A stretch of DNA of 64,000 nt from Dehalococcoidia bacterium (GTDB taxonomy: Bacteria; Chloroflexota; Dehalococcoidia; Lucifugimonadales; JAGWBF01). The position numbers were made by a program, and so were the translations under genes. The first letter of the stretch is position 1; each line of letters opens with the position of its first letter. Shown piece by piece: positions 21,694 through 29,061 of the stretch. The notes under the pieces were generated by a model. That model worked only from the letters and a program-made list of their open reading frames with translations. It searched no databases and had not been told where the DNA came from. The stretch is from assembly GCA_965219565.1 (NCBI GenBank), contig OZ244780.1, forward strand, positions 1,006,287-1,070,286, in the 5' to 3' direction.

Positions 21694-22860
21694 GTGAAGT
21701 TTGGTCTGGGGGTGAAGGCGCCCGTGGTTCCACGATTCTTTAGGGCCGCAGTTATGGCCGCGCTTTGCTTGTCCCTCGCCGCGTGCGGGGGAGCTGCCAG
21801 TCCGACGTTGATCCCCACACCTGAGCCTACGTCCACGCCGGTTCCGACTGCGACTCCAACGCCTCCGTCTGCACCCGTCCCAACCGCCGAGTCGGTCCCA
21901 TACGTGCGGTTGCCCCAGGACGAGGGGGCGCACCTGACTCCTGTGGAGTGGTGGTATTTCAACGGACATCTCACGACCGAGAGCGGGGGGGACTACAGCT
22001 ACCACTTCGTGACATTCCAGTTGGTCTTGCCGGATGGCCCGACGGTAAGGATTGCACAACTAAGCTGGGCCGACCATTCCGAGGGAGTCCACCTGATCGC
22101 TGAGCTGCCCGAGGCGGTCCAGGCTGAAGCGACCTCCGGGGAATTTGACGGCAGCGTGTCCTCATGGAAGATGACGGGGGATGGTGAGGACTACTCGCTG
22201 GCGTTCCAGGTCGGGGAGTATGAGGTAGAGATGCAGGCGACATCCCGTAAACCGGCTGCGCTCCACGACGGCAACGGGTACGTCGACCTGGGAGTCGCCG
22301 GCAAGACCTACTACTATTCCCGCACGAACTTGGACACCACCGGTTCTCTCGCAATAGACGGACAGTCCCAGGAAATCTCCGGCACGTCCTGGATGGACCA
22401 CCAGTGGGGCGACTTCGGCACCGCTGAGATAGGTTGGGACTGGCTGAGTATGTTCCTCGACGACGGCTCGGAGCTTACCGTGTCCGTGGTCTGGGAACGC
22501 GACGGACGGAAGCACATCGAGACCGGCGGCACCTATGTCCCACCGGACTCCGGCGCCGTGCATCTGAGCGGAGATGACATAACGCTCAACCCCAAGGGGT
22601 CGTGGACGAGTGAGGCCACCGGCGGCGAGTATCCCATGGGATGGGACCTGCGGGTGGAATCGTTGGGACTGGACGTGGCTCTTATTCCTCTTATGGAAGA
22701 CGCCGAGTTCATCGCCATAGGCGTCATACCGGTCCACTATTGGGAAGGCGGTGTGGATGTAGAGGGAGTGAAGGGTGGCTCACCAATCATGGGCAAAGGG
22801 TTCGTGGAGATGACGGGCTATGCACCCTTACGCGAGGCATTCCCGACCCTAACGCCCTAG
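21694..22860 (+). CDS. AttH/CrtC-like (hydroxyneurosporene-synthase-like, lipocalin-type) lipoprotein
   Basis: Lipobox LSLAAC, Pro/Thr linker, then DEGAHLTPVEWWYFNGHL...YYYSRTNL...SWMDHQWGDF, which is typical of the AttH family. Confidence 0.7.
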   Translation: MKFGLGVKAPVVPRFFRAAVMAALCLSLAACGGAASPTLIPTPEPTSTPVPTATPTPPSAPVPTAESVPYVRLPQDEGAHLTPVEWWYFNGHLTTESGGDYSYHFVTFQLVLPDGPTVRIAQLSWADHSEGVHLIAELPEAVQAEATSGEFDGSVSSWKMTGDGEDYSLAFQVGEYEVEMQATSRKPAALHDGNGYVDLGVAGKTYYYSRTNLDTTGSLAIDGQSQEISGTSWMDHQWGDFGTAEIGWDWLSMFLDDGSELTVSVVWERDGRKHIETGGTYVPPDSGAVHLSGDDITLNPKGSWTSEATGGEYPMGWDLRVESLGLDVALIPLMEDAEFIAIGVIPVHYWEGGVDVEGVKGGSPIMGKGFVEMTGYAPLREAFPTLTP

Positions 22861-22902
22861 GGGGGCAAAGGGGGCGATGTTCGTGTAAACCAGGGAGGGA
22901 CC

Positions 22903-23901
22903 ATGAATAGGGCTGGAATGGTAATATACCACGGCATCGGCGGCGGCGCTGACCTCCGGGAATACGGGCGTATAGCAGATGACCTGGGCTACGACTCCTT
23001 GTGGGTCACCGAGCGTTACCTTCATGAAGAGACGGCGTCCATGCTGGGTTATCTCGCCGCGGCCACTTCCAGGGTCAAGCTGGGCGTCGGAGTGGTCAAT
23101 CCCTTCACCCGGCACCCGGCCCTGCTGGCGATGATGGCGGCCACTCTGGACCGCATCAGCGGAGGACGGTTCATCCTGGGCATGGGCCGGAGCGACAGCT
23201 TCATCATCGAAGATCGGCTGGGGATGTCCTATTCCCGGTCGCGAGGCAGGTTGGAAGAGGCTCTGACAATCGTCCGTGAGTTTCTGGAAAAAGGTTCAGC
23301 TTCCTATCAGGGCAGAGTATTCAACCAACCCGAGGTCAGCCTGGAGATGAAGCCAATACAGGACAGGCTGCCCATCTACATGGCGGCTATCGGTCCCAAG
23401 GCCCTGAAGACGGCGGGCGCCTTGGCCGATGGAGTTCTCTTAAACGCCTACGTCTCACCCGGGTACGTGAGGTACGCAGTGGGCCTGGTCAAAGAAGCTG
23501 CAAAGGAAGCGGGCCGGGACCCGAACTCGGTGCGCGTCGCCTGCATGTTGGTGATGCGCATGACGCCCCGCCCGGAGGAAACCCGTCCCGGACTAAAGCA
23601 GAGACTCGTGCGCCTCTATTCCGAGGCCCACGTAGGGGAGATTCTCCTGGAGACTGCCGGATTCGACCCGCAAACGGCCTCGCGGCTGCGGGTCCTGTAT
23701 GAAGAGGGCGACATGAAAGGTGCAGTGGGGCTTGTCACCGACGACATGGTGGACTCATGCTACGTCATTGGACCGCCGGAGCAATGCAGGGAACGGGTGG
23801 AGGAGTACGTGAGGGCCGGTGTGGACGAACCGTTGCTGCTTCCCAGGTTGGAGGACTACCAGGGTGTGGCAAAGGCCATGGCCCGGGCCCTACGACCATA
23901 G
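22903..23901 (+). CDS. LLM-class flavin/F420-dependent oxidoreductase
   Basis: LGYDSLWVTERY and VVNPFTRHPALLAMMAATLDRISGGRFILGMGRSD. Confidence 0.85.
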   Translation: MNRAGMVIYHGIGGGADLREYGRIADDLGYDSLWVTERYLHEETASMLGYLAAATSRVKLGVGVVNPFTRHPALLAMMAATLDRISGGRFILGMGRSDSFIIEDRLGMSYSRSRGRLEEALTIVREFLEKGSASYQGRVFNQPEVSLEMKPIQDRLPIYMAAIGPKALKTAGALADGVLLNAYVSPGYVRYAVGLVKEAAKEAGRDPNSVRVACMLVMRMTPRPEETRPGLKQRLVRLYSEAHVGEILLETAGFDPQTASRLRVLYEEGDMKGAVGLVTDDMVDSCYVIGPPEQCRERVEEYVRAGVDEPLLLPRLEDYQGVAKAMARALRP

Positions 23902-23998
23902 ATAGACCGACCCTGACGGATGGTGGAGAATCGGTCAAAACCATTGCTTTGAACCCTAGAGAGGGGAACTGTTCCTCGGCCCAAAATGTAATAGTTAT

Positions 23999-26023
23999 AT
24001 GAATGCAAATATGAGTCTAGTCGTGAAACGTCTTACCGTGAGGTTTCTGGCGGTCATCATCTTGGCGTTAGCAACTCTTGGATTGGCGGCCTGCGGCGCC
24101 GACACTCCGGAGGCATCCGATAGTTCCGACCAAGAATCATCGGACCATTTTGTAGGCCGTGTCTCAATATATACCGTTCGCCATGAGGGTATCTCTTATA
24201 GGCCCGTCGCTGGCCCGATACGAGAGGAACTGCTGGATCTGGATCGTTTGACGCCGACCGGACTGGTGCTTGGTGACAGCGACCAAGAGCTGGTAAAAGG
24301 CAGCGAAGGGCGGAAGGTCTTCACATTGTCTGGAGTGCCCATAGAACAAGGGTTCTTGGTGCGTTCCAACGATAGGGGGTATGGGCCTGACGTCAAATGG
24401 GGGACAAAAGCAACATCATATCCGGTCTGCCAGTCTGGGTCGGGCGCCTATGTGTACACCGCTAAGGGCGCCTCGCCCTCGCCTCGGTGGATCCCGTCTC
24501 GCGGACCGGCCTATCCCGGCGGACCTACTCCCACGCCGGTCCCTACTCCCCCCAACGTACCCATCGTCGCCACAGCTTTATCGGCACAGGGGTTGCTGGG
24601 CGTAGGCTGGCCGGTTGTGAACATGGAACGCCTTCAGTTCGGATTTCGGGGAGTCGAATACTTATTTACCGCTTTTCGTTCCATAAACGAGCATGGGGCG
24701 GACTCATCCATCTCTTCTGCCGAAATCGAGGAGCTGGAAACCCTGTCCATAACCTACTTTATCGACCTGGCGCCGTTGCCGGCTCCCGCACTGGAGGAGA
24801 TAACTTCGGATGGCACGGTAACAGACCACGTGCGGGTCTATCGTCTCGAAGACCGACCCGCCGGCGAAGTAATCGTGGTCGACCAATGCCCGGCAGACCT
24901 CCAAGGCGACCAATTCTCCTATTTTCAGCCGACCCAGGCGGCGACTCATTCTAACAATGGCGACTCTCCTCCGGTCCCCACTTCTACACCAGAGCCCTTG
25001 CTGCCCGGCGGCACGTCTAGGGCGCCGGACCACGTCAGGCTCGACCTCGATGACGGAGTCGTGGTTGCTTTCGCCGCTGACCCGAGTCTCGGACGGATAG
25101 CGTATGTCACCCACGTACCATCGGGCGCCCAGGTTGTACTCGACCGGGAAGGCAAGGTGATTGAGCGGCACGACCCTCCAGGGGTTGACAGCGATTTGCT
25201 TGACGCGACATTAGAGGACAGCGACGCCATGACGAAGATCCGGCGAGGTCTACAGTACGAGGGAGTCCTGGTTAGGGACCCCATCAGAAGCTGGATCAAC
25301 GCTATCCACTTCGAAGGCGCTTCATACTACCCGGCGTCGGAAGGCGCCGATGGCGTAGCAACTGGGGAGGTGGAGCTAGACCGATCCGAGCTAGGCCCGG
25401 TCATCTATTGGGTAGCTTTCTGTCTTAGCTGCAACATCGACCTGCCAATGGGCTACCAGGTCCAGGACGGCGATGCCACTCTCCTAGACCCGGGCACTGC
25501 CGTATACAGCGTTAACGGCTACGATCCTTCGGAGCGGGTGGCCGTCATTGTGGATGGCGAAGTGTTGTTGTACGACAAGTTCGAACCCACCCCTCCGATT
25601 ATAACTCCGACCCCAAGCTTCAAGCCCACTGATCCCGAGGCTTCAAGGAGACCATCCTCCGACAAGTACTCCGAAGAGGAGCAGCAACTACGAGCCGTTA
25701 TGGGCAACTTTCCAAGTGACGAAATAGTCTGGATCGATGGAGACACCGTTGTATATACACTAGCCCGAGACCCTCACGCCTATTATCACAACCCTCCCGA
25801 TTTTTCCAAGGGGTTCATAGCGGTTGCTCAGCATCTTCCTACGGGAGCGACCAAGGCCTACGCCCTATCCAGCGAGGCCGCCTCTGATACGGGCGTGAGG
25901 AGGGTTGAAGCCATCGATGAATATGCAGGCGACCACCCCGAGGGTAAAGAGGTCTTAGACCGAATGCAGCGGGACCCTAAGGTAATCGGTGCGGTCACCA
26001 AGCTTCTACGAAGGGTGGAATGA
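23999..26023 (+). CDS. large lipoprotein of unknown function with three related internal modules
   Basis: Signal peptide plus lipobox LGLAAC and Pro-rich linkers. I recognise no domain. The stop overlaps the next start (ATGA at 26020-26023). Confidence 0.7.
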   Translation: MNANMSLVVKRLTVRFLAVIILALATLGLAACGADTPEASDSSDQESSDHFVGRVSIYTVRHEGISYRPVAGPIREELLDLDRLTPTGLVLGDSDQELVKGSEGRKVFTLSGVPIEQGFLVRSNDRGYGPDVKWGTKATSYPVCQSGSGAYVYTAKGASPSPRWIPSRGPAYPGGPTPTPVPTPPNVPIVATALSAQGLLGVGWPVVNMERLQFGFRGVEYLFTAFRSINEHGADSSISSAEIEELETLSITYFIDLAPLPAPALEEITSDGTVTDHVRVYRLEDRPAGEVIVVDQCPADLQGDQFSYFQPTQAATHSNNGDSPPVPTSTPEPLLPGGTSRAPDHVRLDLDDGVVVAFAADPSLGRIAYVTHVPSGAQVVLDREGKVIERHDPPGVDSDLLDATLEDSDAMTKIRRGLQYEGVLVRDPIRSWINAIHFEGASYYPASEGADGVATGEVELDRSELGPVIYWVAFCLSCNIDLPMGYQVQDGDATLLDPGTAVYSVNGYDPSERVAVIVDGEVLLYDKFEPTPPIITPTPSFKPTDPEASRRPSSDKYSEEEQQLRAVMGNFPSDEIVWIDGDTVVYTLARDPHAYYHNPPDFSKGFIAVAQHLPTGATKAYALSSEAASDTGVRRVEAIDEYAGDHPEGKEVLDRMQRDPKVIGAVTKLLRRVE

Positions 26024-27789
26024 TCTACGAACGTAACAAAGGGTTAACTAGGAGACGTTGCATGGTGGGGCTTCTGATGGCCATGGTCTTGGGACTGGCT
26101 ATCCTTGCACTGGTGGCGTGCAACTCCGGCGCGACGCCGATGACCAGTCAGCCGACGAAGACTGAGGAAGCGCTTGTCTCCAGCTCCTTCGTCAACTCCT
26201 GCGCCTACCGCGCCCCGGAGCCTACCCCTACGCCAGACCTGACGCCGCCGACGTCCACGCCATTCTCAAACATTACTCCCATCCCCTACCCGACAGAAAG
26301 GCCGTCGGCGGATGTTGTTGCCTACCCCGATCTGCCGTCGCCCGCGCTGCCGGCCCCCGTCAAAGCCTGGCAGGACGCCGTGGTGCGCGTGACCGTCGAA
26401 CTGGCCAGCGGCCGCATTCGACACCAGCAAGGGCTGGTCGTCGCCGATAAAGCCGTGCTCACCGTGCTTGACCTTACGGAGGAGACCGCTTCGTTGTCTG
26501 TGGACGTGTCCCGACTAGGCGCCTTCGCCGGTGAGCTTGAGCGCTTCGACCCCCGCACCGGCGCTGCGCTGATCACCGTTGGGGCTGAGGGCTTGACCGT
26601 GGCGCCTGGTGAGCGCACGACTGTAGCCCATGGTGAGCCAGTGTTGATTCTGAACCGTGACCGGGACTCCGGCGATCTCGTAGTGGGAGAGACCTTCGCC
26701 AGCCCCAGTCTCAACGCGCCGGACCATATCTTCGCACTGCGCACGGACTACACACGCCGCGCCCAACGGGGCGCGACAGTGGTCACGGGCGACGGCACAC
26801 CCGTTGGCCTCGCGGGTTACGGGCGGCGATGGTATGGCCACGGCGGGCCGGTCGTTTTTGGCCAGATTGGCGGTACGGACCTGCCGGCTGTGCTGTTCGA
26901 CTCCGCGTTCCGGCTGCTGGAGCTCGCGCCCCCGGATGCGGGCATCACCCCCTCCGCAGTCGCCTACCACGGGGCGGGTCGAGGTCGGCCAGTGGACGGA
27001 CCGGTGACTCGAGAGCTATTGGGAGAGCCTGTTCGGGCAACGCTTAGGGGCCTAGGAGAACCGGTTCTACTGGAAAACCTTGGGCGGCACCCGGGATACG
27101 TGCTCCGGTTTAAGTCAGGCACGATGCTGGAGTTGCTCTACGCCGCGCCCCAGGAACTGCGCGGGGCCGATCGAGAACTACTGGGCAGCGCGCGGTACAT
27201 CGTGCTCTGGTGGGCCAGAGAGGGCGGCGTTCCCGACCTCGTCCTCTGCGGCACAGACAGAGAACACCTAGGAGCCGCCTTTGCCGCCCGTGACCTGCGC
27301 TTGTTCGAGGCGTTCATGGTGAGAGCGCCGTCCAGTTCGCCGGACTCGATGGTATCCGCCGCCCCTCTCGACGCGCCGGAGTATGGATACTCCGGTAAGT
27401 ACGGCTACTCCAGTGAGGACTACCAGTACCCCTTCGAGTGGGAGCTGAAGACCGACAAATTGGCATACGTGCAGGATGAACCGGTGGCACTGACCTTCAC
27501 GCTCACCAACGCCAGCGATTGGCCCGTGCCTCTGGACTACGTGCCGCCGAGAGTGGTTATTCACAGCCTTCAGGAACACCGAGACGTGGCTGTGCTGGGT
27601 TACGGCGACGGGCGCCGCGTCCTGCAACCCGACGAGACCGCTTCTTTCACCATGACCTGGGACCAGATGCACTTCGAGGGCGGGCGGGCTCCGGCGGGAC
27701 GCTACGTCGCACATGTACACCTGGCCAACGTCGCGGACAACTGGTTGCTGACTCCGGGGCCGACAGCCTATGATGTGATATTGGAGTAG
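26020..27789 (+). CDS. lipoprotein: Pro/Thr linker, trypsin-fold-like domain lacking the catalytic triad, C-terminal BsuPI-like domain
   Basis: Lipobox LALVAC. The segment AVVRVTVE...GLVVADKAVLTVLDL...FDPRTGAALITV...RGATVVTGDGTPVGLAG follows the HtrA/S1C pattern, but the His, Asp and Ser positions are substituted. The C-terminus DEPVALTFTLTNASDWPVPLDY...ETASFTMTW...GRYVAHVHL resembles the intracellular proteinase inhibitor fold. Confidence 0.7.
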   Translation: MIYERNKGLTRRRCMVGLLMAMVLGLAILALVACNSGATPMTSQPTKTEEALVSSSFVNSCAYRAPEPTPTPDLTPPTSTPFSNITPIPYPTERPSADVVAYPDLPSPALPAPVKAWQDAVVRVTVELASGRIRHQQGLVVADKAVLTVLDLTEETASLSVDVSRLGAFAGELERFDPRTGAALITVGAEGLTVAPGERTTVAHGEPVLILNRDRDSGDLVVGETFASPSLNAPDHIFALRTDYTRRAQRGATVVTGDGTPVGLAGYGRRWYGHGGPVVFGQIGGTDLPAVLFDSAFRLLELAPPDAGITPSAVAYHGAGRGRPVDGPVTRELLGEPVRATLRGLGEPVLLENLGRHPGYVLRFKSGTMLELLYAAPQELRGADRELLGSARYIVLWWAREGGVPDLVLCGTDREHLGAAFAARDLRLFEAFMVRAPSSSPDSMVSAAPLDAPEYGYSGKYGYSSEDYQYPFEWELKTDKLAYVQDEPVALTFTLTNASDWPVPLDYVPPRVVIHSLQEHRDVAVLGYGDGRRVLQPDETASFTMTWDQMHFEGGRAPAGRYVAHVHLANVADNWLLTPGPTAYDVILE

Positions 27790-27891
27790 ACGCTATGATA
27801 CGGCTTCGTGGGGCCTGCTTGCAGTGAAGGCGGCCCCACGCCAGCCCCGGCTGGTGCAGTAGGCGAAACTGCTTCAACTTGCGTTGCCTGG

Positions 27892-28419
27892 TTATCTCTG
27901 AGCCACAGCGGGAAGCAGCCGGACCTGGCCCCGCGCTTCTATATCGGCCCAGTCCGGAACAGAACCGCCTTCCAACAGTCCTATCCTCGCAACAACCTCG
28001 GACAGAAGATTTGCCGTGTCTATGCCCATGAACGACGGTGTGAAAGGCTCCAGTCCCGTCCGTGCATCCATTAGCTTGGACAGCGAGCCTTTTCGGTTGC
28101 GACGCTCCATGTGGAGCAAGCCCACGGCGGACTTCAACAAGGCTTGGTAGAAGAGCCGGAGGGGGTATCCCTCTCGGAGCCATATCTCTTCCAGGGTTTC
28201 GTGGCAACGCCAGTACTGGCCTTCGTTGAACTGCTGGACCGCGGTCTGAAGAGAGGCGGGCGGAACGAGGGGGCCTTGGAGGAAAGCGTTTACGCCCCGG
28301 TCATGGATGAGGTCCAGCCACTGACGGTCAAGCGCGGGGCGTTCGCCCTTGGCTGGCGTTGACGGAGGCATTTCATACGGCATTAGAGCATGTTGCTGGG
28401 ACAGTGGGTCCAGGTCCAC
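27892..28419 (-). CDS. DUF309 domain protein
   Basis: FNEGQYWRCHETLEEIW is the signature I associate with DUF309. Confidence 0.7.
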   Translation of the reverse strand: MDLDPLSQQHALMPYEMPPSTPAKGERPALDRQWLDLIHDRGVNAFLQGPLVPPASLQTAVQQFNEGQYWRCHETLEEIWLREGYPLRLFYQALLKSAVGLLHMERRNRKGSLSKLMDARTGLEPFTPSFMGIDTANLLSEVVARIGLLEGGSVPDWADIEARGQVRLLPAVAQR

Positions 28420-28488
28420 AGCCGGACATCTTGTCCAGCCATTCAGTCTCCTGAGAGTATAGCTGTCCCAGGTCTTATTGGGGAGAGT

Positions 28489-29061
28489 TCAGGGAGCCGT
28501 CGATGCGTCCACGTCCGGCGCTCCTAGACCCTGGTGGTAGTCGCCTATGGCGATGGCGTTCCATTCATGGGTGGACTTGCCCGTGCCGATCATGCCCCAC
28601 CTGGTCATGACGGTGTAAGCCAGTTCCTCTTTACCTGCGTTGGCCCTCCCCAACATGGCGATGCGGACATCCTTAAGGGGATATATGAACAGGCGTATGT
28701 CGTGTTCCCTGGACCACTCGTCCAGGACCTTGCCTAAGGCCTCGACGCTCTCCTTCCTTTGAGGCAGATGCAACAGAGACTGGCGTCCGCAAGCGGCCTC
28801 CGTGGGTCGCCAGAGCTGGGCCATCCGTTCCAGCTCTTTCTTGATGTTTTCCAACCGTTCCGGCAGCTTTGTGTGCTTGGAGCCGCATTTGGGATCCATC
28901 GCGCCGGTGTTCACGATGCTCCAGGCACACCCCTCTTGCCCTTGCAGCCGTTTAGGGTACCGGCCTTCGCTAGGCCCTTCCAACTCGGGGTTGTTCTCGG
29001 TTGAGAAGAGGGCCCAGCCCAACTCCCTTACCGACAAGTCTATCGCCAACAGGTTAGCCAC
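28489..29061 (-). CDS. RuvC-like / RNase H-fold protein (divergent; function uncertain)
   Basis: N-terminal LLAIDLSVRELGWALF resembles RuvC ILGIDPGxxxxG. The C-terminal THEWNAIAIGDYH resembles the RuvC xDAADAxAIAxxH helix. There is a mid-protein PTEAAC (Glu). Confidence 0.5.
   Translation of the reverse strand: MANLLAIDLSVRELGWALFSTENNPELEGPSEGRYPKRLQGQEGCAWSIVNTGAMDPKCGSKHTKLPERLENIKKELERMAQLWRPTEAACGRQSLLHLPQRKESVEALGKVLDEWSREHDIRLFIYPLKDVRIAMLGRANAGKEELAYTVMTRWGMIGTGKSTHEWNAIAIGDYHQGLGAPDVDASTAP

Follow-up and report, generated by a model that had tools for sequence, protein, structure and literature searches.

The serine proteases of the HtrA family (MEROPS S1C), such as DegP, DegQ, DegS, AlgW, MucD and the M. 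tuberculosis protein MarP (Rv3671c), combine a two-beta-barrel fold with an extracytoplasmic location and membrane tethering. Members of the fold with non-catalytic roles have also been described. MamO, from magnetotactic bacteria (PDB 5hm9/5hma), resembles HtrA but is inactive, and it activates MamE (PMC4794232). In RsgI9, an anti-sigma factor of Clostridium thermocellum, the S1C-like domain is a non-catalytic binding module (PMC12203970). A further point of comparison is the Bacillus subtilis intracellular proteinase inhibitor BsuPI (PF12690). In this work, a 64,000-nucleotide stretch of a Dehalococcoidia genome (the window) was analysed, with the focus on two adjacent genes, ORF1 and ORF2. 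The second encodes a protein that shares the fold, location and tethering of the HtrA family. With a probability of roughly 0.55, the pair is an accessory two-gene cassette for non-enzymatic surface lipoproteins in a monoderm SAR202/Dehalococcoidia bacterium.

Both genes and all the features described within them are on the + strand. ORF calling and translation bear out the two ORFs of an earlier note on this DNA, ORF1 (P0001; 23999-26023, 674 aa) and ORF2 (P0002; 26020-27789, 589 aa), as well as their tight spacing as a single operon-like unit. The ATGA overlap at 26020-26023, shared by the ORF2 start codon (ATG) and the ORF1 stop codon (TGA), is real in the sequence and is kept in L054, the sole other contig with both genes. 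A second possible start of ORF2 is found at 26050-26064, with an AGGAG (26050-26054) placed 7 nt upstream of the ATG (26062-26064). This type of start was picked by the gene callers for the L054 orthologue, yielding 575 aa. With it, 38 nt would separate the two genes, and the charged n-region and the overlap would be lost; translational coupling of the two genes is therefore plausible but uncertain. Downstream, a GC-rich hairpin at 27807-27840 (inverted repeat I7; 14-nt arms and a 6-nt loop) is placed between the convergent ORF2 and DUF309 genes and is likely their shared terminator, although it lacks a T tract.

The two products are predicted lipoproteins carrying Sec/lipobox signals, as previously proposed. 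The translations start with positively charged residues followed by a hydrophobic stretch and the lipobox, which is LAAC with Cys32 in ORF1 (23999-24094) and LVAC with Cys34 in ORF2. The Lgt and LspA enzymes are both encoded by the host genome. The Pro/Thr linker that had been placed after both lipoboxes is found in ORF2 only. Its signal peptide, lipobox and linker occupy 26020-26337, and the linker itself (residues 35-106, about 70 aa) is predicted to be disordered, with AF2 pLDDT values below 50. C34 and C61 of ORF2 are invariant in 43 homologues, the latter within the linker. In ORF1, on the other hand, Cys32 is followed by a short acidic, Ser-rich stretch, and the Pro/Thr linkers separate the modules of the protein (residues about 158-192, 318-345 and 528-556).

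ORF2, regarded in the earlier note as a protein of unknown function, can be assigned: its domains include a protease fold of the HtrA type, without the triad, and a BsuPI-like domain. The AF2 model is confident in its domains (pLDDT 80-92, and 65-92 in the middle one). The trypsin-fold domain, of the S1C (HtrA/DegS/MarP) type, covers residues about 110-300 (26347-26919) and was assigned from profile searches, Foldseek and paralogue alignments. A profile built from the 43 homologues matches MucD/DegP (8k2y, E 1.5e-5) and, weakly, MamO (E 0.06). Foldseek aligns the model with DegS, DegQ, AlgW and MarP at E about 1e-10 and TM 0.65-0.72 (0.70-0.72 for DegS without its PDZ domain). When aligned with four active HtrA paralogues encoded by this genome, ORF2 has D151, G181 and R250 at the positions of the His-Asp-Ser triad. 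ORF2 itself has no match to Pfam Trypsin_2. Its distant relatives of 340-420 aa are also devoid of the triad, but one of them passes the Trypsin_2 cut-off (31.2 vs 27.6 bits) and so connects the family with genuine proteases. ORF2 descends from an HtrA-type serine protease; it kept the two-barrel fold and lost the catalytic triad, as did its whole family. The protein is under purifying selection (dN/dS 0.36-0.37).

A hydrolase working through a non-canonical active site is very improbable. Invariant polar residues do cluster in the fold (R175, D177 and S228/S230/N232 of an ASPSxNAP motif), but the trypsin-fold domain contains no invariant His or Lys and the Asp position is an invariant Gly. 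In addition, the nucleophile position varies across the wider family among Arg, Gln, Glu and Ala, and the oxyanion-loop motif GNSGGP is remodelled.

ORF2 also differs from the HtrA family in its lipid anchor, attached via the long Pro/Thr linker, and in what follows the barrels: no PDZ domain was detected, and an alpha/beta and an Ig-like domain are found instead. The middle domain (residues about 306-440; 26935-27339) is modelled as one long helix and four long strands and contains the invariant C410 and an ARYIxLWW motif; it also comes after the pseudoprotease domain in the distant relatives. The C-terminal domain (27421-27786) is all-beta, with eight strands in the AF2 model. It aligns with BsuPI over 95 of the 101 profile positions, although below the Pfam cut-off (18.7 vs 22.9 bits; DUF4232, 16.5). 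About 20 of 102 ORF2 homologues have a precomputed PF12690 match, and partner lipoproteins whose genes precede ORF2 homologues contain BsuPI domains that pass the cut-off (34-41 bits). Unlike the intracellular B. subtilis protein, the ORF2 counterpart would be extracellular and part of a multidomain lipoprotein, and an inhibitor role is putative.

The domain order recalls RsgI9 (PDB 7sjy), in which a non-catalytic S1C-like domain and a second small alpha/beta domain are displayed on the outer face of a monoderm membrane. ORF2 could accordingly be imagined as an extracytoplasmic sensor that binds a polymer or peptide signal and feeds an ECF sigma/anti-sigma pathway, which is quite unlikely. The RsgI9 S1C-NTF2 bi-domain is listed by Foldseek (E 6.9e-9), and ECF sigma genes are found beside ORF2 homologues in about five loci. 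In three of them (L019, L024 and L043) the sigma gene (Pfam Sigma70_r2/r4/ECF) and a downstream membrane protein gene are directly upstream of the lipoprotein/ORF2 cluster, and in two (L021 and L038) it is within 6 kb. However, the 7sjy match is no better than the ordinary DegS/DegP matches, any NTF2 fold of the middle domain is putative, and no sigma or anti-sigma gene is found near the pair in the window. Moreover, RsgI9 spans the membrane as an anti-sigma factor; ORF2 is a separate lipoprotein that has an additional Ig-like domain and no anti-sigma fusion.

ORF1, also of unknown function in the earlier note, matches no described family. It has no match in Pfam, NCBIfam or PDB, and its AF2 model (mean pLDDT 51.8) has none in Foldseek. 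Four orphan modules, each also occurring independently, make up ORF1, with Pro/Thr linkers between them. Module 1 (residues about 58-125; 24170-24373) is a small beta-rich domain with six strands (pLDDT 75-88). The relatives P0005 and P0012, of 1000-1160 aa, and L039 carry it together with module 2 (residues about 205-312; 24611-24934; pLDDT 55-78). Module 3 (residues about 335-530; 25001-25588) is the most widespread and is shuffled among many Dehalococcoidia lipoproteins. A 70% identical copy is contained in an 878-aa ORF elsewhere in the host genome, and tblastn and blastp detect it at 40-46% identity in up- or downstream neighbours of ORF2 homologues in about ten loci. Module 4 (residues about 545-674; 25631-26020) is a C-terminal alpha/beta domain (pLDDT 65-88) that also occurs as stand-alone small ORFs in two genomes (G030 and G001).

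The three copies of one module previously suggested for ORF1 are weakly supported. A BLAST self-comparison found no internal repeat, and sub-alignments were compared profile to profile against 100 column shuffles. The segments at residues 45-135 (m1) and 425-530 (m3) are similar over 57 columns (score 24.1; shuffles 11.5 +/- 2.3). The segment at 200-305 (m2) reaches 20.9 against m3 over only 13 columns, at the xIxFxGxxY start, and m1 against m2 is not above the shuffles, 5 of 100 reaching the score. A separate resemblance, absent from the earlier note, is seen between the first half of module 3 (335-425) and module 4 (545-674), at the start of the latter (score 23.7 vs shuffled 10.7 +/- 2.1).

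In the earlier note, the pair was read as translationally coupled and as forming one stoichiometric complex at the cell surface. The overlap kept in L054 and the tethering of both proteins on the same membrane face agree with it, and in 7 of 17 intact loci of other genomes a lipoprotein gene is directly upstream of the ORF2 homologue, at -59 to +40 nt. However, these partners are not homologous to ORF1 (BsuPI/CTM, module-3, META or 356-aa types), the other ten intact homologues have no upstream lipoprotein, and ORF1-like proteins also occur without ORF2. The start at 26062 would abolish the overlap, and the pairing is largely not conserved outside this genome. The complex is thus not supported and is considered unlikely. 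A loose tendency of ORF2 homologues to follow some lipoprotein gene is what remains of the pairing, and their neighbourhoods vary so widely that no single partner is implied.

The genes occupy an accessory segment of about 4.0 kb (23887-27911), delimited by blastn of 22400-29000 against the syntenic regions. In the congeners G002 and G004 the segment is absent: the flanking LLM-oxidoreductase and DUF309 genes are adjacent, about 30 bp apart, and homology ends at 23886 and restarts at 27912/27913. A third congener, G003, keeps a frameshifted ORF1 stub, in which module 1 is still present, and has no ORF2. The exact pair is found only here and in the congeneric contig L054, and the expectation of a unit conserved in related genomes largely fails. 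ORF2 homologues are patchy, often broken and found only in Dehalococcoidia/SAR202 MAGs (full or partial in 5 of 40 relatives, several fragmented), often near transposases and serine recombinases. Judged from sequence identities, ORF2 is decoupled from species distance: ORF2 and NadC are, respectively, 78% and 94% identical in G002, 62-73% and 64% in G017, and 68% and 42% in G032. The cassette is dispensable and its family mobile.

This mobility raises the possibility of moron-like mobile cargo, a conflict-related surface cassette that masks or alters receptors for superinfection exclusion or for evasion of phages or grazers. Such a role is doubtful. The patchy spread, the frequent pseudogenes, the nearby recombination genes and the uncoupled identities agree with it, as do the mosaic, fast-changing partners (ORF1 dN/dS 0.45 vs the L054 orthologue). 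In G002, an ORF2 homologue and its partner are also placed between portal and prohead-protease genes of a phage-like head module. However, this module is 84-97% conserved in all genus members and therefore looks domesticated rather than an active phage. A search of 2.9 million viral contigs gave no relative, no PHROG or PADLOC match was obtained, and the BFVD matches are generic trypsin folds only. In the window, housekeeping genes surround the cassette, and neither an integrase nor flanking repeats are present.

The same head-module slot bears on the comparison with MamO, which like ORF2 has an HtrA fold with a degenerate active site kept for non-catalytic work. Three congeners hold a lipoprotein and an active Trypsin_2 protease in the slot, and G002 holds a lipoprotein and the ORF2 homologue in place of the protease. 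This exchange and the locus L059 suggest a link of ORF2 to active trypsin-fold proteases. A distant ORF2 relative is encoded two genes from a lipoprotein Trypsin_2 with His, Asp and Ser in place, and active proteases adjoin ORF2 homologues in few loci only. ORF2 has neither the magnetosome context nor the di-histidine metal site and TauE-like membrane domain of MamO, and its origin is independent.

The favoured reading is an optional cassette of about 4 kb, which relatives lack or are losing, rather than a conserved machine of two parts. Peptides or proteases are the most likely ligands of ORF2. Its 70-residue linker would keep it at a distance from the membrane, and the surviving substrate cleft, together with the middle and BsuPI-like Ig domains, would serve for binding peptides, unfolded proteins or HtrA-type proteases on the cell's own surface, of which ten are encoded by the host genome. 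In extracytoplasmic proteolysis, ORF2 may thereby serve as adaptor, holdase, decoy or regulator, much in the way MamO acts on MamE. ORF1, with its poor model (pLDDT 52), may be a variable, co-expressed surface cargo rather than an obligate subunit. The Pro/Thr linkers and a conserved 95-aa C-terminal module of the partner lipoproteins may serve as the recombination joints by which these genes are reshuffled.

ORF1 (23999-26023, 674 aa) and ORF2 (26020-27789, 589 aa) are adjacent genes on the forward strand. As the earlier note had read from the window sequence, the start codon (ATG) of ORF2 and the stop codon (TGA) of ORF1 share an ATGA. Both genes are real and look expressible. An alternative ORF2 start, the ATG at 26062 on the same strand, carries an AGGAG 7 nt upstream and is equivalent to the gene-caller start of the 575-aa orthologue on contig L054, an ENA contig from another member of the genus. 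With this start, a 38-nt gap follows ORF1 and the charged n-region of ORF2 is gone. The start at 26020 is preferred over 26062, and translational coupling is not proven. Between the convergent ORF2 and DUF309 genes lies a GC-rich hairpin (27807-27840; 14-nt arms, 6-nt loop, no T tract), which is probably their shared terminator.

The lipobox pattern applied was [LVI][ASTVI][GAS]C, closing a hydrophobic signal sequence whose n-region is positively charged. Both translations contain the charged n-region, the hydrophobic core and the lipobox, in keeping with their description as lipoproteins. The signal of ORF1 has K10, R11 and R15 and ends in LGLAAC32 (lipobox LAAC, Cys32), and that of ORF2 has K7 and R11-R13 and ends in LALVAC34 (lipobox LVAC, Cys34); C34 is invariant in 43 homologues. 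The genome (G000) carries Lgt (PF01790, 137.5 bits) and LspA (PF01252, 114.9 bits), which makes the two predicted products credible lipoproteins. The Pro/Thr linker described after both lipoboxes is present in ORF2, where it spans residues 35-106 and is disordered in the AF2 model; in ORF1 the Pro/Thr stretches separate the modules instead.

Single-sequence searches of PDB, Pfam and NCBIfam with ORF1 (P0001) and ORF2 (P0002) returned nothing above cut-off. For ORF2, the sub-threshold matches were BsuPI, DUF4232 and the MarP protease family, and its excised protease-like segment gave only noise against PDB. A database search recovered 102 ORF2 homologues, mostly of 550-610 aa and 56-95% identical. 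The profile of 43 of these matches MucD/DegP (8k2y, E 1.5e-5) and, weakly, MamO. The AF2 model of ORF2 has a mean pLDDT of 68, with 80-92 in the domains: a two-barrel domain (residues ~110-300), an alpha/beta domain (~306-440) and an all-beta domain (~468-589). Foldseek against PDB returns DegS, DegQ, AlgW, DegP and Rv3671c/MarP of M. tuberculosis at E of about 1e-10 (4e-10 to 7e-9 for DegS, DegQ, AlgW and Rv3671c), with a TM of 0.70-0.72 to DegS without its PDZ domain. The rmsd is 3.4-4.5 A for the protease domain alone and 12-13 A for the whole chain against DegS with PDZ, and ORF2 has no Pfam match to a PDZ domain. By Foldseek and profile, ORF2 has the chymotrypsin-like two-barrel fold of the HtrA/S1C proteases.

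The catalytic positions are occupied differently. ORF2 and its relatives were aligned with four active paralogues of the same genome to assign the triad. The His motif TNxHV reads TVLDL in ORF2 (D151), the Asp motif D[IL]A[VL]L reads TGAAL (G181, invariant) and the Ser motif GNSGGP reads AQRGAT (R250). The alignment of 43 homologues contains no invariant His or Lys in the protease-like domain. ORF2 has no Pfam Trypsin_2 match at E<=1 and is not detected among the 10 canonical Trypsin_2 proteins of the genome, and its distant relative P0212 lies above the Trypsin_2 cut-off (31.2 vs 27.6 bits). With an HtrA fold, replaced triad motifs and no invariant His or Lys, ORF2 is, as predicted from sequence and model, an HtrA-fold pseudoprotease. 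A cryptic hydrolase is almost certainly the wrong reading. The dN/dS of ORF2 is 0.37 against L054 and 0.36 against the homologue of the congener G002, and the protein is therefore maintained by purifying selection.

C61 and C410 are also invariant in the 43 homologues and suggest a disulfide, in keeping with an extracellular location. The BsuPI score of ORF2 is 18.7 bits against a cut-off of 22.9 (E 0.0017; profile positions 2-96 of 101); that of its homologue P0185 is 22.8 bits against the same cut-off, and about 20 of the 102 homologues have a precomputed PF12690 match.

We give a probability of roughly 0.55 to the reading in which ORF2 binds and does not cut, and ORF1 is co-expressed variable cargo. 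The surviving cleft, together with the middle and BsuPI-like domains, would serve ORF2 in binding peptides, unfolded proteins or surface proteases of the same cell. Two systems offer parallels. MamO activates MamE without catalysis (PMC4794232), and the S1C-like domain of RsgI9 binds a polymer (PMC12203970). The RsgI9 S1C-NTF2 sensor (7sjy) is in the Foldseek list of ORF2 (E 6.9e-9, TM 0.48), no better than DegS.

The likeness to RsgI9 also bears on another reading, in which ORF2 is a sensor linked to an ECF sigma factor. An ECF sigma gene with a membrane-protein gene downstream stands beside ORF2 homologues in about 5 of about 24 loci. At three of the loci, in other Dehalococcoidia genomes (L019 2632-4461, L024 5998-7859 and L043 3868-5600), the membrane protein has 390-400 aa and may be an anti-sigma factor, and these pairs are directly upstream of lipoprotein/pseudoprotease clusters. 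Unlike RsgI9, a transmembrane anti-sigma fusion with an adjacent sigma gene, ORF2 is a predicted lipoprotein with no sigma gene nearby (none in the window between 15 and 36 kb). An ECF-linked sensor is an unlikely reading of ORF2.

The earlier note suggested that the two proteins form a stoichiometric surface complex and asked whether the pair is conserved as a unit. It is not, and the distribution of the cassette (23887-27911) speaks against the complex as well. In the congeners G002 and G004 the genes of the luciferase-like (LLM) oxidoreductase and DUF309 are ~30 bp apart, and 23887-27911 has no counterpart. In G003, 88%-identical DNA extends only to position 25145; what remains is a 333-aa ORF that encodes the signal peptide together with modules 1-2, followed by a frameshifted scrap of module 3, and ORF2 is gone. 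The exact pair was seen only in the window and in L054, where synteny and ATGA overlap are unchanged. Some ORF1 relatives lack an accompanying ORF2, and ORF2 homologues are found with other partners or with none. The cassette is dispensable and the family mobile. An obligate ORF1-ORF2 complex, for which the shared overlap in L054 could be read and against which the exchange of partners stands, is unlikely.

A search for signs of an insertion element around the cassette yielded no integrase, no tRNA and no flanking repeats, whether direct or inverted. Compared with L054, the dS of ORF1 and ORF2 is 0.06-0.12, against 0.41 in the upstream LLM gene. Nucleotide identity is 81-91% in the LLM oxidoreductase gene, 77% at 23901-24200 and 92-99% in the cassette. 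That the cassette arrived later than its flanks is not claimed, since in the sliding identity profile the downstream DUF309/RuvC-like/zinc-ribbon operon is equally similar (mostly 94-97%, with one stretch of 86% at 27801-28100). The region is mosaic as a whole relative to L054, so that the low dS does not point specifically to a transfer of the cassette. The identity profile points to a recombination breakpoint probably near the start of ORF1.

The partners of ORF2 homologues in other genomes are lipoproteins of several kinds. A lipobox-bearing ORF ends -59 to +40 nt from the ORF2 homologue in 7 of 17 intact loci, and none of these seven is ORF1-like. Five end in a 95-aa C-terminal module (CTM) and the others in a different C-terminal module. 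Several upstream partners carry clear BsuPI domains (34-41 bits), and that of L038, a locus with a truncated ORF2 homologue, has META domains. The CTM (PPQGPGxEIG..YPYTLYVHCG.RDA.FDGR.WMADPML...PWPxDVEWxxC) shows 84-97% identity between lipoproteins that are otherwise unrelated, and in most cases an ORF2 homologue follows directly (loci L002/L023, L018, L020, L022, L035, L043, L039 and L029). It matches no Pfam family and may act as an anchor for recombination or as a domain for interaction. Transposases and serine recombinases are also found near ORF2 homologues.

ORF1 has no match in Pfam, NCBIfam or PDB, and its profile against PDB is also empty. Its AF2 model is poor (pLDDT 52; 24-sequence alignment), and the best Foldseek matches, axonemal proteins with a top E of 0.025, are meaningless. 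Module 3 (residues ~335-530) is the best conserved part, yet its pLDDT in the model stays under 35. The 38 ORF1 relatives are modular. P0005 and P0012 (1000-1160 aa) contain modules 1-3 (module 1, ~58-125; module 2, ~205-312) and additional modules at the N-terminus, among them module 3 a second time; P0005 also contains module 4 (~545-674). These long relatives are not ORF1-ORF2 fusions, since BLAST finds no similarity between P0005 and ORF2. A 70% identical copy of module 3 occurs in an 878-aa lipoprotein ORF elsewhere in the genome (G000:C1:257407-259632, L006), which has an orthologue in G003. Many lipoproteins encoded near ORF2 homologues also have module 3, at 40-46% identity, and module 4 forms stand-alone small ORFs in G030, a relative, and in the congener G001. 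Judged from these sequences, ORF1 is a mosaic of orphan domains that also occur independently, joined here by Pro/Thr linkers.

The three-copy module ascribed to ORF1 stands only in part. BLAST self-comparison of ORF1 found no repeats. Segment sub-alignments from family members were then compared profile against profile, with 100 column shuffles as control. Segments m1 (45-135) and m3 (425-530) score 24.1 against 11.5 +/- 2.3 shuffled over 57 columns; m2 (200-305) and m3 score 20.9 over 13 columns only, and m1 against m2 does not rise above the shuffles. The first half of module 3 (335-425) and module 4 (545-674) score 23.7 against 10.7 +/- 2.1. On these scores, the repeat is at best a distant m1-m3 relationship plus a common starting hairpin motif.

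An exhaustive search of 1.84 billion representatives with the ORF2-family profile returned 517 proteins at E<=0.001. These include more distant full-length relatives and 340-420-aa lipoproteins with the pseudoprotease and middle domains, lacking the Ig domain. None of these has the triad, and all are unnamed metagenomic hypothetical proteins. P0212 (L060/L061), a pseudoprotease lipoprotein of two domains, is flanked on one side by a DUF5939-adenylate/guanylate cyclase gene and on the other by a protein of at least 1571 aa that the contig end truncates. Its locus adjoins a histidine kinase/response regulator pair, and this signalling context differs from that of the SAR202 loci.

In the species-representative genome collection, the 27 ORF2-homologue loci all belong to Dehalococcoidia or SAR202 MAGs. 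Full or partial homologues occur in 5 of 40 relatives (G002, G009, G016, G017 and G032), several of them split or truncated. The NadC identity of G000 to G002, G017 and G032, used as a yardstick of species distance, is 94%, 64% and 42%, and the corresponding ORF2 identities are 78%, 62-73% and 68%. The two series do not run in parallel, and ORF2 identity is therefore decoupled from species distance. This decoupling, together with the differing locations, indicates lateral movement of the family within the order.

Such mobility would also suit a cargo for conflict or exclusion. No ORF2 relative was confirmed in viral contigs, no PHROG or PADLOC match was found at E<=0.1 and the BFVD fold search returned generic trypsin folds only, so that this role is doubtful. 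A phage-like setting does exist in G002, where the ORF2 homologue (L018) lies between the portal and S78 prohead-protease genes. The head module (portal, S78 prohead protease, capsid) is present in all genus members at 84-97% protein identity, and the portal-protease slot holds different cargo in each genome. In G000 (G000:C1:181293-185700, L056) and G003 (L057) it contains a minimal 150-156-aa lipoprotein (signal peptide, linker, CTM) and, convergent to it, an active Trypsin_2 protease whose N-terminus is EF-hand-like and whose C-terminus is LamG-like. In G001 (L058) it contains a 424-aa CTM lipoprotein and the same protease. In G002 it contains a 643-aa BsuPI/CTM lipoprotein together with the dead ORF2 homologue, and the active protease is missing. 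Elsewhere, a lipoprotein Trypsin_2 in which the His-Asp-Ser triad seems to be present is found two genes away from a distant family member. The slot exchange and this neighbour are suggestive, not decisive, and they are the sole hints that link the pseudoprotease functionally to live proteases. Three of the 10 active HtrA-like proteases of G000 (L047, L048 and L049) are lipoproteins; their Pro/Thr linkers are long, and all three end in a similar domain that contains cysteine (ATFCxEWE...LYRIGD).

A broader and quite speculative proposal is that ORF2-type pseudoproteases, BsuPI-bearing lipoproteins and CTM lipoproteins would form a mobile surface protease/anti-protease toolkit, exchanged by homologous recombination, for which the CTM and the Pro/Thr linkers would provide conserved joints. 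The variable slot in the phage-head gene cluster of the genus, a cluster that would be domesticated and possibly GTA-like, would be one exchange point, with the active trypsin-like protease and the dead ORF2 homologue as alternative cargo. If this is true, the dead and the live protease would act as alternatives to each other and tune either particle maturation or the proteolytic state of the cell surface.

SAR202 and other Dehalococcoidia are abundant, uncultured bacteria of oceans and sediments, and to our knowledge almost nothing is known of their cell surface. Regulation of an active protease by a pseudoprotease partner is known from isolated examples, MamO among them. ORF2 is a new architecture of this known HtrA-fold pseudoprotease kind and belongs to an uncharacterised, mobile SAR202 family. 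ORF1 is an orphan mosaic, and a stoichiometric complex of the two is not supported. Part of the predicted surface proteome of these bacteria consists of shuffled orphan modules on Pro/Thr linkers. Selection maintains the predicted lipid-anchored pseudoprotease family, although its members come and go and pass from one lineage to another, and in one congener the dead protease takes the place of a live one. In annotation, the ORF2 homologues can be named as lipoproteins with an inactive S1C-like domain and a BsuPI-like domain in place of hypothetical proteins. With more than 100 members and variable partners, the family would be a useful natural set for studying how a protease scaffold becomes a binding module.
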